Shown here: in pieces, positions 6,361 through 9,206 of the stretch | Position numbering within the stretch: position 1 is the stretch's first letter | Layout: every line of letters starts with the position of its first letter | Virus record (IMG/VR): IMGVR_UViG_2534681940_000023 | Span: 1 to 9,206 of that record | Length of the DNA stretch: 9,206 nucleotides | Source: a virus | Lineage: Duplodnaviria; Heunggongvirae; Uroviricota; Caudoviricetes | Direction: 5' to 3' (one strand) | The notes under the pieces: model-generated | Databases searched by the model: none | Told to the model about the DNA's origin: nothing | Seen by the model: the letters and a program-made list of their open reading frames with translations, nothing else | Made by a program: the position numbers and the translations under genes

Positions 6361-6987
6361 ATGGAAACGGTTGGTCAGCGTATAAAAGCTCTGAGAAGAG
6401 TTACCAGAACGTCCCAGAAAGAATTGGGTAAATTTTGTGGAGTAAGTGACGTTGCTGTGGGGTACTGGGAGAAAGACATCAATGTCCCTGGTGGGGAAGC
6501 ACTTTCAAAATTAGCGAAGTTCTTCAATACGTCAATAGATTACATTCTTTATGGTGCGGAGTTTGAAGGCAAACTCGTCACAAACATGCGCAGAGTTCCT
6601 GTAATCTCGTGGGTTCAGGCTGGGCAGTTTACTGAGTGCAGGACAGCAGAAGTGTTTAGTGAAGTAGACAAGTGGGTAGATACATCATTAAAGATTGGTG
6701 ATAACTCATTTGCATTGGAGGTTAAAGGCGACTCCATGACTAACCCTAACGGCCTCCCAACAATACCAGAAGGCGCAACAGTGATTGTAGATCCTGATGC
6801 AGAACCCCGGCATGGAAAAATAGTCATCGCTAGACTTGATGGAACAAACGAAGCCACAGTAAAAAAATTAGTTATCGATGGCCCTCAAAAGTTTTTAGTG
6901 CCATTAAATCCCCGGTACCCCAACATTCCGATCAATGGTAATTGCCTCATCATTGGTGTAGTCAAAGGAGTTCAATACGAACTCTAG
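6361..6987 (+). CDS. cI: CI-like prophage repressor (XRE helix-turn-helix plus S24 LexA-type peptidase, autocleavable)
   Basis: N-terminal helix-turn-helix 'QRIKALRRVTRTSQKELGKFCGVSDVAVGYWEKD'. Ala-Gly cleavage site 'VQAGQF'. Catalytic Ser in 'GDSMTNPNG' and Lys in 'TVKKLV'. Confidence 0.85.
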   Translation: METVGQRIKALRRVTRTSQKELGKFCGVSDVAVGYWEKDINVPGGEALSKLAKFFNTSIDYILYGAEFEGKLVTNMRRVPVISWVQAGQFTECRTAEVFSEVDKWVDTSLKIGDNSFALEVKGDSMTNPNGLPTIPEGATVIVDPDAEPRHGKIVIARLDGTNEATVKKLVIDGPQKFLVPLNPRYPNIPINGNCLIIGVVKGVQYEL

Positions 6988-7005
6988 CCCCCCTTTTCTC
7001 TAACC

Positions 7006-7042
7006 AAAACACCGAACTAAGAAAAGTTTGGTGTTTTCTCTT
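7006..7042 (+). terminator. Intrinsic terminator after the cI-like gene
   Basis: AAAACACCGAAC / GTTTGGTGTTTT forms a 12-bp stem (one G-U pair) with an 8-nt loop, running into TTTTCTCTT. Confidence 0.6.
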
Positions 7043-7075
7043 GCCATCAAAACTAAGTTAAGTTAGATTTTATAT
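7041..7075 (+). promoter_or_regulatory. pL-like promoter with OL-like operator
   Basis: TTGCCA (7041-7046) -17 nt- TAGATT (7064-7069). The overlapping ACTAAGTTAAGTTAGAT (7052-7068) matches the 6278-6294 site at 15 of 17 positions, with its -10-overlapping end at the equivalent place. Confidence 0.5.
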
Positions 7076-7158
7076 CAAAGATAACGAACAGGCAGGACGC
7101 CCACGAAGTAGCCGACGGTGGCGTATGAATGACCGGATGATTCGCGCATGGCAGGAGA

Positions 7159-7533
7159 GTGAATATGGATGGCAGTATCGACAACCAACGAGATGCCTGG
7201 CTTGTGGTGATTGAAGCAGCAAAAACTGCATTAAGCCAAGTTGAAAGCAGTAACTACAGAACAGTTAAACAAATGGCTTTGGGCTCTATTATCTATGCCT
7301 TTGAAAGGCTGGACTTTGATTTTGAAGCAACGAGTATTCTGTCAGAACAACATGAAAAAATGAATAGAGAAGACGCCGCAGCCTATATCGGCGTAGAAGC
7401 GCAAACCTTAGCTAATTGGGCTAGCACAGGAAAAGTTCGAATACCTTTTTTAAAAATCGGTAGAAAGGTTATTTACCTAAAAAGTGATCTTGATGCCTAT
7501 CTTGCCTCATCGAAGGCAAATACCACCAAGTAG
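7159..7533 (+). CDS. Hypothetical protein with a C-terminal excisionase/AlpA-type helix-turn-helix (first gene after pL, N/rexAB position)
   Basis: RBS AGGAGAG. The C-terminus 'AAAYIGVEAQTLANWASTGKVRIPFLKIGRKVIYLKSDLDAYL' is an HTH_17/excisionase-like fold. There is no arginine-rich N-like motif. Confidence 0.6.
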   Translation: MNMDGSIDNQRDAWLVVIEAAKTALSQVESSNYRTVKQMALGSIIYAFERLDFDFEATSILSEQHEKMNREDAAAYIGVEAQTLANWASTGKVRIPFLKIGRKVIYLKSDLDAYLASSKANTTK

Positions 7534-7753
7534 CTCACGTACCTACCACCTCGCCTGATGTGGCTAAAAGCAGGCACATAACAGCTAAGTATTTTCAACC
7601 AGAGAGAATCCTTAGCGTTGTGGTGAATGCGGCTCAGCGCACGCGGGTTAAGGTTGAGACTGACAGTCGACCTTCTGTGGATACCCACCCGCCTGGTGTG
7701 CAACCTTCGCCAGGCACCGGGAGGCACCCGGCACCACAACAGCCACTGCTTTG

Positions 7754-7800
7754 GCGGTACCAGTTTGTACACTTGCTTCCGGCTGGTACCGCTCTTTTTA
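7754..7800 (+). terminator. Intrinsic terminator-like hairpin inside the GC-rich non-coding stretch
   Basis: Perfect 10-bp stem GCGGTACCAG / CTGGTACCGC (7754-7763 and 7783-7792) with a 19-nt loop, followed by TCTTTTTAC. Confidence 0.5.
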
Positions 7801-7888
7801 CAAAACAGAGAAGAGCATCACCGGACGACGGGCTCATAACCCAATCCACCCGGGCGGCTGCCACCGCAGGTGCTCTTCTCTGTTTTGT
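7800..7888. repeat. Perfect 18-bp inverted repeat (ACAAAACAGAGAAGAGCA / TGCTCTTCTCTGTTTTGT) around a 53-nt GC-rich spacer
   Basis: Arms at 7800-7817 and 7871-7888. It can extend by several further pairs with mismatches, and it lies immediately after the terminator U-tract. Confidence 0.6.
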
Positions 7889-7936
7889 GGAGAAACCAAC
7901 CGACCTTGCAGGGTCGATATGATGAGGAGCAGCAAA

Positions 7937-8299
7937 ATGGCTAGCGAACGCAGTACTGATGTGCAGGCATTTATCGGGGAGCTGGACGGCGGCGTATTTG
8001 AAACCAAAATCGGCGCTGTTCTCAGTGAAGTCGCTTCAGGTGTGATGAACACGAAAACCAAAGGGAAGGTCTCGCTCAACCTGGAAATCGAACCGTTTGA
8101 TGAGAACCGTGTGAAAATAAAACACAAACTCTCATATGTTCGTCCGACTAACCGCGGGAAAATTTCCGAAGAAGACACCACCGAAACGCCGATGTATGTC
8201 AATCGCGGTGGTCGCCTGACTATTCTGCAGGAAGACCAGGGACAATTACTGACTCTTGCCGGTGAACCTGACGGAAAACTCCGCGCAGCAGGTCATTAA
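7937..8299 (+). CDS. YfdP-like hypothetical phage protein (120 aa)
   Basis: GAGGAG lies 8 nt before ATG 7937; in-frame ATGs at 7919 and 7922 are alternatives. It precedes the yfdQ-like gene, as in CPS-53. The longer track ORF (7751..8299) runs through the non-coding structured region and is not credible. Confidence 0.55.
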   Translation: MASERSTDVQAFIGELDGGVFETKIGAVLSEVASGVMNTKTKGKVSLNLEIEPFDENRVKIKHKLSYVRPTNRGKISEEDTTETPMYVNRGGRLTILQEDQGQLLTLAGEPDGKLRAAGH

Positions 8300-8364
8300 T
8301 ATCGTTCTTAATTAACTGATTATTTATCTCATCACTGAATATCCTTATATAGTGAGGACTTATT

Positions 8365-9189
8365 ATGTCTCAGAACTTAGACGCAACCGCAATTAATCAA
8401 ATCCATGCCCTTATTTCTGCTCAGGGTGTTAATGAAATTATTAGTAAGATTGGTGCCGATGCTGTGGCATTGCCTGAGAATTTCCGCATTCATGATCTGG
8501 AAAAATTTAATTTAAATCGCTTCCGTTTCCGTGGTGCGCTTTCCACTGCCAGCATCGATGACTTTACCCGTTATTCTAAAGATCTTGCAGATGAAGGCAC
8601 CCGCTGCTTTATCGATGCCGATAATATGCGTGCCGTCAGTGTGCTTAACCTGGGTACTATTGATGAACCAGGTCACGCAGATAACACCGCCACTCTCAAA
8701 CTGAAAAAGACAGCACCGTTCTCTGCTCTGTTGTCTGTTAATGGCGAGCGTAACTCCCAAAAGTCACTGGCAGAATGGATTGAAGACTGGGCCGACTACC
8801 TTGTGGGCTTTGATGCTAATGGTGACGCCATTCAGGCAACCAAAGCGGCTGCGGCGATCCGTAAAATCACAATTGAAGCGAACCAGACCGCTGATTTTGA
8901 AGACAATGACTTCAGCGGCAAACGCTCCCTGATGGAGTCTGTCGAAGCGAAGACCAAAGACATTATGCCAGTGGCATTTGAATTTAAATGCGTTCCGTTT
9001 GAAGGCCTGAAAGAACGTCCGTTTAAATTACGCCTCAGCATTATCACTGGCGATCGTCCTGTACTGGTTCTGCGCATTATTCAGCTGGAAGCGGTGCAGG
9101 AAGAAATGGCTAACGAATTTCGTGATCTGCTTGTTGAGAAATTTAAAGACAGCAAAGTAGAAACCTTTATTGGTACTTTCACCGCCTGA
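8365..9189 (+). CDS. yfdQ: YfdQ-family protein (DUF2303)
   Basis: 274 aa, the same length and character as E. coli CPS-53 YfdQ. RBS TGAGGA. Confidence 0.8.
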
Positions 9190-9206
9190 TTTCATTACTG
9201 CAAATG

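Follow-up and report, generated by a model that had tools for sequence, protein, structure and literature searches.

The 403-nt stretch at positions 7534-7936 of the phage DNA analysed here (IMG/VR record IMGVR_UViG_2534681940_000023, positions 1 to 9,206; this whole 9,206-nt stretch is referred to below as the window) lies between a small helix-turn-helix gene and the genes yfdP and yfdQ. Along the plus strand, a cI-like repressor gene, a promoter-like site, an HTH_17 open reading frame (ORF), the gap itself, yfdP and yfdQ (DUF2303) follow one another, an order that places the stretch in an early-left operon. We found that positions 7544-7918 are a non-coding, plus-strand RNA leader, belonging to the early-left (pL) operon in a lambdoid prophage of the mEp460/SfV/ST64B/e14 type, and that the first domain of this leader (~7567-7752) is a closed, pseudoknotted RNA. 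Phage mEp460_4F5 is 99.5% identical to the window across the 403 nt.

The original prediction, made from the letters of the sequence alone, had described a GC-rich, multi-hairpin island separating the pL-proximal gene from yfdP/yfdQ, and this description held throughout. The HTH_17 ORF ends at 7533 and yfdP starts at 7937. In 200-nt windows, GC content is 0.525-0.58 over 7501-7900, compared with 0.385-0.415 upstream (7201-7600) and 0.37-0.49 downstream (8001-8500). All of the hairpins that had been named are present, and the plus strand of these 403 nt has a folding energy of -171.9 kcal/mol, compared with -130.9 +/- 5.8 in 100 dinucleotide shuffles, none of which reaches that value (z = -7.1; the minus strand gives z = -5.4). 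The promoter scan found a sole plus-strand promoter-like site within 6000-8400, at 7041-7069, and this site is likely pL, transcribing the element, which lies about 550 nt into the pL transcript. ARAGORN called no tRNA or tmRNA at the element in the window or in related loci.

In the K-12 prophage e14 the homologous DNA is annotated as a protein gene, ymfH, and RefSeq calls it a ‘frameshifted’ hypothetical protein in many genomes while leaving it unannotated in others. If the stretch did encode a protein YmfH, as e14 is annotated and as the RefSeq pseudogenes imply, one would point to the gene name that RefSeq carries and to the window’s 120-aa ORF (7560-7922), which shares its frame with e14 ymfH (103 aa) at both ends. 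Against this, window and e14 use different frames in the middle part of the gene, and among 28 distinct homologues the ymfH frame stays open for ~100 codons only in these two. In the other 26 it is broken: 23 have a stop at codon 75, one has its stop at codon 47, and the two Salmonella sequences already end at codon 19. Indels in the homologue alignment (1, 7, 9 and 25 nt) do not keep to multiples of three, and substitutions track base pairing, with G.U intermediates and compensatory pairs, and not codons. The four ORFs of the stretch that were scanned, taken from both strands and including ORFs of 120, 91 and 76 aa, had no Pfam match, and the 120-aa ORF had no NCBIfam match. The stretch is non-coding, and we regard a YmfH protein as extremely improbable. 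The earlier judgement that no credible ORF exists is thus borne out, and the conserved coding frame in related prophages that would have spoken against it is absent. Dismissing the 120-aa ORF as junk was right in that it is not protein-coding, but overlooked that it corresponds to an annotated K-12 gene. In the literature on ymfH and yfdP we found no study of an RNA at this place. As a separate observation, the e14 copy (L003 2578-2889) has lost one base of the P5 loop described below and has one broken P5 pair (CCGGG-GGCA-CCCGA), so this copy may be decaying.

The pairs within the helices identify the strand on which the structure is selected. In an alignment of the 28 homologues, which also supplies the counts for the downstream hairpins, helix cells comprise 1377 Watson-Crick pairs, 204 G.U pairs as read on the plus strand and 2 A.C combinations. 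The 204 G.U pairs would be A.C mismatches in a minus-strand RNA or in a DNA cruciform, and the selected structure is therefore that of a plus-strand transcript. We built a covariance model, R1, from 34 representatives including the window sequence, and used it to align 54 copies (alignment A3, which is hence fitted to the model). In A3, 97.3% of helix cells pair, compared with 80.5% in shuffles and 43-49% when the partners are slid. The compensatory changes that the original prediction had proposed to seek in related prophages are abundant: both partners have changed in 235 cells, where shuffles give 69. All eight pairs of the P4 hairpin carry compensatory changes across the 54 sequences, within a subtype as C-G to U-A changes with a U.G intermediate; three P2 pairs switch from CG to GC in 10 sequences; and family-wide covariation is seen in the closing helix P1 plus its extension. 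In 29 of the 34 members, the segment that best complements the P4 loop is found 18-23 nt past the AAU, with more than 12 different sequence pairs in use, and Lelliottia, Pseudescherichia and Pantoea have this pseudoknot too, formed from new sequences. The search patterns fixed UGGUGAAU and P5, so the invariance of these two is partly by construction; in array copies found by the model alone, P1 covaries (UGAUG/CAUCA, UGGCG/CGCCA) and P5 is still nearly constant. The helices and the pseudoknot covary, and the structure is that of a plus-strand RNA.

These counts bear directly on the suggestion that the repeats mark a DNA-level feature, whether a cruciform, a protein-binding palindrome or an 89-bp insertion resembling a miniature inverted-repeat transposable element (MITE) and bounded by the 18-bp repeat. 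The window repeat is indeed perfect over 18 bp, and Pantoea relatives lack both the terminator and the repeat yet retain the GUGGAGAAA motif that follows the repeat, so the block can be present or absent. In most relatives, though, the stem contains G.U pairs, which would be A.C in DNA (204 G.U to 2 A.C overall), with one alignment column pair (322/406) reading G.U in 20 of 28 sequences, and the interior of the hairpin is conserved between E. coli and Salmonella. The 18-nt pattern of the 5′ arm occurs in the same slot after the same terminator in all but one of 102 distinct contexts, the exception (L142) being, when read by eye, a chance match without the repeat. Genomes carry one to five places, tracking prophage number and unlike a dispersed repeat. 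The inverted repeat is seen in this slot only and is thus not a MITE, and we consider any reading at the level of DNA scarcely credible.

No Rfam family matched the stretch at gathering thresholds. Below them, the covariance-model search that had been proposed gave a full-length match to STnc100 (RF02076; model positions 1-206 of 206) at 7599-7801, with 36.3 bits against a gathering threshold of 47 and an E-value of 4.9e-6 (1.1 kb searched against 4227 families, with E-value reporting). The Salmonella homologue scores 37.5 bits, and canonical STnc100 copies score 56-160 bits (extremes 55.7 and 159.7). Since R1 was built with the window sequence included, it is the Rfam match that provides an independent test of relatedness. 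A scan of viral contigs for TGGTGAAT...CCGGGAGGCACCCGGCACCA recovered at least 120 loci with at least 69 distinct cores of 99-124 nt.

The likeness to STnc100 extends to architecture. Both have a closing helix UGGUG/CACCA followed by AAU, then P2, P4 and the hairpin CCGGGAGGCACCCGG, and the element aligns to R1 without non-standard pairs; both have a pseudoknot, absent from the Rfam model, that joins the P4 loop to the segment following P2; in both, a hairpin and U-tract follow; and both are carried by prophages. The element departs from STnc100 in its score below the gathering threshold, and from canonical copies in a different interior and in P2, where the G-C pairs of the window are flipped relative to the C-G pairs of the canonical CCCCC/GGGGG helix. 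Canonical copies start ~7 nt downstream of a sigma-70 promoter, TTGACx-17-TAAxTT, and are followed by one or two terminators, whereas the promoter scan found no promoter-like site in 7070-7616 ahead of the element. Representative canonical loci lie between Q (or stx2B) and lysis or nanS genes, while the element lies in the early-left operon before yfdP. R1 found no second or canonical STnc100 copy beside the element in the mEp460_4F5 genome. By sequence and fold, the core domain is thus related, if distantly, to STnc100 and is a divergent clade within the prophage small-RNA superfamily STnc100/PasD, one that falls below the Rfam threshold. A resemblance of the canonical P2 to the canonical terminator was also considered and was rejected, being absent from other subtypes.

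Members of this superfamily are expressed. Eleven STnc100 copies are transcribed in EDL933, one of them confirmed by northern blot (PMC5331693), and PasD1 and PasD2 of enteropathogenic E. coli are Hfq-dependent, Hfq-stabilised and terminator-ended, with many partners by RIL-seq, in which interacting RNAs are ligated and sequenced (PMC8550237). A common ancestor and consensus fold for PasD and STnc100 have been proposed (2026 preprint, bioRxiv 10.64898/2026.05.13.724894). We liken PasD to the element by its published description only, and PasD1 and PasD2, unlike the element, belong to the late region, with Q and lpxR as neighbours. Tandem arrays of four STnc100-like copies, ~250 nt apart and with different interiors, were seen at two loci (L061 4375-5464 and L014 2321-3355), the former with a fifth copy 3 kb away (8375-8520).

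Within the core domain (Table 1), P5 is the most conserved motif of the family. The original prediction had listed the hairpins at 7691-7716 and 7717-7731 as separate elements. Both are present as described, the former with arms GCCTGGTG/CGCCAGGC at 7691-7698/7708-7715, but they are P4 and P5 of one pseudoknotted domain (7617-7740), whose long-range closing pair P1 was not on that list. The pseudoknot strand AAGGUUG has an alternative local partner at 7667-7674 (UCGACCUU). Outside the core, the AAGCAGG/CCUGCUU pairing of the outer helix P0 is also found in Lelliottia.

Table 1. Features of the leader and its surroundings, in window coordinates.
Feature	Position	Strand	Basis or context
Cro-like gene	6063-6263	-	immunity region
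cI-like repressor, Peptidase_S24 + HTH_3	6361-6987	+	domain search
Predicted sigma-70 promoter TTGCCA-17-TAGATT, downstream of repressor gene	7041-7069	+	promoter scan
HTH_17 ORF, first pL gene	ends 7533	+	upstream neighbour of the stretch
Conserved leader, 5′ part	7544-7616	+	homology with relatives begins at 7544-7546
Small hairpin CCAC/GUGG	7546-7549/7560-7563	+	within the 5′ part
Hairpin in the 5′ part	7584-7596/7604-7616	+	inverted repeat
Outer helix P0	7567-7575/7742-7752	+	minimum free energy (MFE) fold
P0 3′ strand GCCACUGCUUU, linker to terminator	7742-7752	+	MFE fold
STnc100-like core domain	7617-7740	+	Rfam STnc100 match and model R1
P1 closing helix, GUUGUGGUG/CACCACAAC	7617-7625/7732-7740	+	9-bp perfect long-range inverted repeat
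P2 hairpin, loop UCAGC, A7641 bulged	7628-7633/7639-7645	+	alignment to R1
Pseudoknot strand a, AAGGUUG	7650-7656	+	complement of P4 loop
Pseudoknot strand b, CAACCUU	7701-7707	+	in P4 loop
P4 hairpin, GCCUGGUG/CGCCAGGC, loop 7699-7707	7691-7698/7708-7715	+	alignment to R1
P5 hairpin CCGGG-AGGCA-CCCGG (CCGGGAGGCACCCGG), stacks on P1 3′ strand	7717-7731	+	upper-case in Rfam consensus
Terminator-like hairpin GCGGUACCAG/CUGGUACCGC, 19-nt loop, then UCUUUUU	7754-7799	+	inverted repeat; putative function
Long 97-nt hairpin domain, conserved branched interior	7796-7892	+	inverted repeat, -50.1 kcal/mol
Small GC hairpin CGACCU/GGGUCG, ends 7 nt before yfdP Shine-Dalgarno	7901-7916	+	folding
yfdP	7937-8299	+	downstream neighbour; Shine-Dalgarno GAGGAG 7924-7929, ATG 7937
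yfdQ (DUF2303)	after yfdP	+	domain search

Three further hairpins follow the core. The GC-rich 10-bp stem with a U-tract that had been noted at 7754-7800 was recovered as a perfect inverted repeat at 7754-7763/7783-7792 followed by TCTTTTT, folding at -21.2 kcal/mol (RNAfold, 7754-7799). It was not among the matches of a consensus terminator scan, because its 19-nt loop exceeds the scan’s limit of 8. This terminator-like hairpin is conserved: the Salmonella stem differs (GUCGGCGUC/GACGCCGAC), with three fully compensated pairs, and its U-tract is identical. A boxA-like reading of CGCUCUUUUUACAA at the end of the terminator was rejected, as e14 and most relatives have CGCC or CGUC there. The long hairpin has 25-nt arms (7800-7824/7864-7888) that are 88% complementary, their first 18 nt (7800-7817/7871-7888) forming the perfect repeat around 53 nt that had been predicted; its outer pairs, formed with the terminator U-tract, are U.G-rich. 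One of its pairs is G-C in five of the 28 homologues, the window included, G.U in 20 and A-U in three, and a second changes from G-C to A-U in Salmonella. With its stem of 18-25 bp, this domain is a candidate RNase III site. At the position of the small hairpin, relatives have other hairpins (CGCCCC/GGGGGC; in Salmonella GGCGGU/ACCGCC), also before different downstream genes.

Of 5426 complete E. coli genomes, 2809 contain DNA homologous to the leader, the median number of places in a genome being one, and SfV, SfII, SfIV, ST64B and other phages contain it as well. The element occupies a conserved slot, in which the same closing helix (GUUGUGG...CCACAAC) and the same terminator flank different interiors in other phages. 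Among the 102 distinct contexts, 43 are of type A, 34 of type C, 21 of type B and 4 of other kinds. Type B, found in mEp460 and Stx2a_1447, is weakly recognised by R1 (E about 1e-3), and type C, found in cdtI, is not recognised by it. The cassettes that types B (L129 2383-2516, mEp460) and C (L131 2395-2508, cdtI) hold in this pL-leader slot look unrelated, and two coreless variants (L171 and L213) keep the terminator and the long hairpin. The linker at 7742-7752 in the window is unlike that of most type A relatives. The gene after the element is yfdP in 74 of the 102 contexts and another gene in the rest, including xisE in e14.

Several relatives have features of their own. In type B, the loop of the first hairpin, GCUGAU, is complementary to that of the last, AUCAGC, which suggests a loop-loop contact. 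In Lelliottia (L236 2313-2446) and Pseudescherichia (L237 4082-4217) the element is closed by a helix of ~20 bp, which shows covariation from one genus to the other. T-arm-like motifs occur in leaders upstream of the core in L130 (GGTTCAATTCC and GTCCGTTCGATTCGGAC, ~2270-2380) and L006 (GGTTCGATTCC and GTCCGTTCAATTCGGAC, ~1400-1490), in neither of which ARAGORN called a tRNA. In four loci (L138, L019, L235 and L241), the sequence GTTGTTGGGGA(A)TAACCAG is directly repeated with a spacing of ~30 nt in the interval separating the element from the start of a divergent gene, and these repeats look like operator sites. In L156 (~7960-8060), a TTGACA promoter with an inverted repeat, TATGTAGGATAACCAACATA/TATGTTGGATATCCTACAT, on its flanks precedes a type B element by ~8 nt, which has the look of a pL with its operators transcribing directly into the element. 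Elsewhere in the window, a 553-aa minus-strand ORF (3783-5444) contains the only two RNAs that score above Rfam threshold, both on the minus strand: C4 antisense RNA (80.1 bits, 4401-4488) and isrK (54.1 bits, 4513-4589); its Phage_ASH match in Pfam (aa 281-375, ~nt 4601-4317) overlies both, and Phage_pRha follows.

The explanation that we favour, at roughly even odds (a probability of about 0.5), is that the element yields a terminator-ended small RNA and at the same time attenuates transcription into yfdP. Transcription from pL would pass through the small HTH gene, and most polymerases would stop at the hairpin and U-tract of 7754-7799, with termination at 7799 freeing a stable structured RNA, ~190-260 nt long and with the terminator hairpin at its 3′ end, which would accumulate. 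Like PasD and STnc100, the freed RNA would be expected to bind Hfq and to act on other RNAs; the experimental ground for expecting such a role is what has been reported of PasD, terminator-ended and Hfq-stabilised with many RIL-seq partners. The same termination would throttle yfdP-yfdQ-yfdR and the genes beyond. Transcripts that read through would carry the 97-nt hairpin at 7796-7892, and a cut there by RNase III would separate the leader from the yfdP message. Of the four options raised in the original prediction, a small RNA or RNA derived from a 3′ untranslated region is the best supported, by the STnc100 match and the shared covarying architecture.

Parts of this scheme have parallels in lambdoid phages and prophages. 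Lambda 6S RNA is a short RNA made by early termination after a phage promoter; R1 had no match in the lambda Q-S interval, the late leader. DicF of prophage Qin is a small RNA that lies between genes of an immunity-region operon and is released by processing and termination; the element gave no DicF match in Rfam and has no sequence similarity to it. The lambda pL (N) leader contains a long RNase III-cut hairpin just before the first gene. StxS, transcribed from the late promoter PR′ with Q-dependent read-through and without sequence relation to the element, follows the proposed logic too: an early terminator blocks downstream genes and yields a functional small RNA (PMC7547250).

A number of points weigh against a terminator-ended small RNA. 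The evidence for expression comes from relatives only (PMC5331693, PMC8550237), the STnc100 score lies under the Rfam gathering threshold, and STnc100 itself is listed as an RNA of unknown function (PMC9029176). With no promoter directly upstream, unlike canonical copies, the RNA would depend entirely on pL firing, and processing would be needed to form its 5′ end. The terminator has a 19-nt loop and a U-run of only 5, and what the family conserves is its junctions and pseudoknot, not an obvious single-stranded seed. The Lelliottia and Pseudescherichia elements lack a terminator and run directly into a ribosome-binding site and its ORF, an arrangement that suits a leader or processing role better.

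The main alternative, possible though unlikely, is that the folded RNA at 7567-7752 instead works in cis, acting on its own polymerase or binding a phage or host factor or a ligand in a put-like, nut-like or riboswitch-like manner, and so decides read-through at 7799 and later terminators. Members stand at the head of long phage operons just before terminators: the type B copy of L156 lies just after its pL-type promoter with operator-like repeats, and canonical copies similarly follow their promoter between Q and lysis genes. The terminator-less copies have an ORF right after them. Conserved positions cluster in the junctions, the pseudoknot and P5, as is the case for RNAs with a binding partner, and the window encodes no N-like arginine-rich protein, its first pL gene being HTH_17. 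In this the element resembles HK022 put, a structured RNA early in the pL operon of a phage without an N protein, upstream of terminators (PMC9378689). Yet put, which acts in cis on polymerase so that the terminators after it are read through, is ~70 nt with two stem-loops and no closing helix. The putL and putR sequences, read from NC_002166, have no motif in common with the element, and R1 had no match in HK022; the element is not a put RNA, and the put-like option of the original prediction is upheld neither by sequence nor by architecture. Its riboswitch option gained no support. No conserved antiterminator pairing between the terminator 5′ arm and upstream sequence was found in type A (-10.5 kcal/mol, against -11.8 +/- 1.9 with shuffled arms), and in window and Salmonella alike the best duplex is no better than with shuffled arms; P0, P1 and the terminator coexist in the MFE fold; and a ligand pocket would not usually be as hypervariable as the interior is (P3 and the pseudoknot sequence). 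For the relatives, discrete terminated RNAs are what accumulates (PMC5331693, PMC8550237), an argument against cis action, since constitutive antitermination would prevent it, and the natural coreless variants retain the terminator and long hairpin. A sigma-dependent pause at TGGTGAAT was also considered and rejected, given a poor -10 match and the distance of ~550 nt from the promoter in the window copy.

We think it improbable that the RNA works chiefly by binding a protein and not by base pairing, as a decoy or trigger in phage-host defence or as a stability or processing module cut from the operon transcript. A plasmid clone of e14 ‘ymfH’, which takes in everything from P1 through the small hairpin, was reported to trigger RcaT, the toxin of retron-Sen2 (bioRxiv 10.1101/2020.06.22.160242), although this came from over-expression, was taken as a protein effect and was not followed up there for ymfH. 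The tandem arrays of four copies with different interiors and the swapping of cassettes within one slot would fit such a role, and the ~20-bp closing helices of Lelliottia and Pseudescherichia could be RNase III substrates; set against these, there is no known binding partner, and no target is identifiable from sequence. A broader proposal, to which we likewise assign a low probability, is that the STnc100 superfamily as a whole is not primarily a base-pairing small RNA and would be a pseudoknotted cis-acting leader that gates the first terminator of early-left and late operons. It would act on the transcribing polymerase or recruit a factor, with the swappable interiors (types A, B and C, and the arrays) setting specificity.

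The findings extend STnc100, among the most abundant of Rfam small-RNA families yet functionally blank, to leaders of early-left operons and to a clade that the gathering threshold misses, and the covarying pseudoknot is new for the structure of the family. A reference protein gene of K-12, ymfH, called a frameshifted pseudogene elsewhere, is better read as an RNA, and about half of complete E. coli genomes carry matching DNA. The cassette swaps and deletions that occur naturally in the one slot amount to a ready-made mutant series. Should the superfamily prove to gate terminators, it would be a third RNA-based control of elongation beside nut and put. If the element does give rise to a terminator-ended small RNA, it would be one of the earliest RNAs to appear once the prophage is induced, made from a leader placed where it can set the transcription that reaches the recombination and excision genes.

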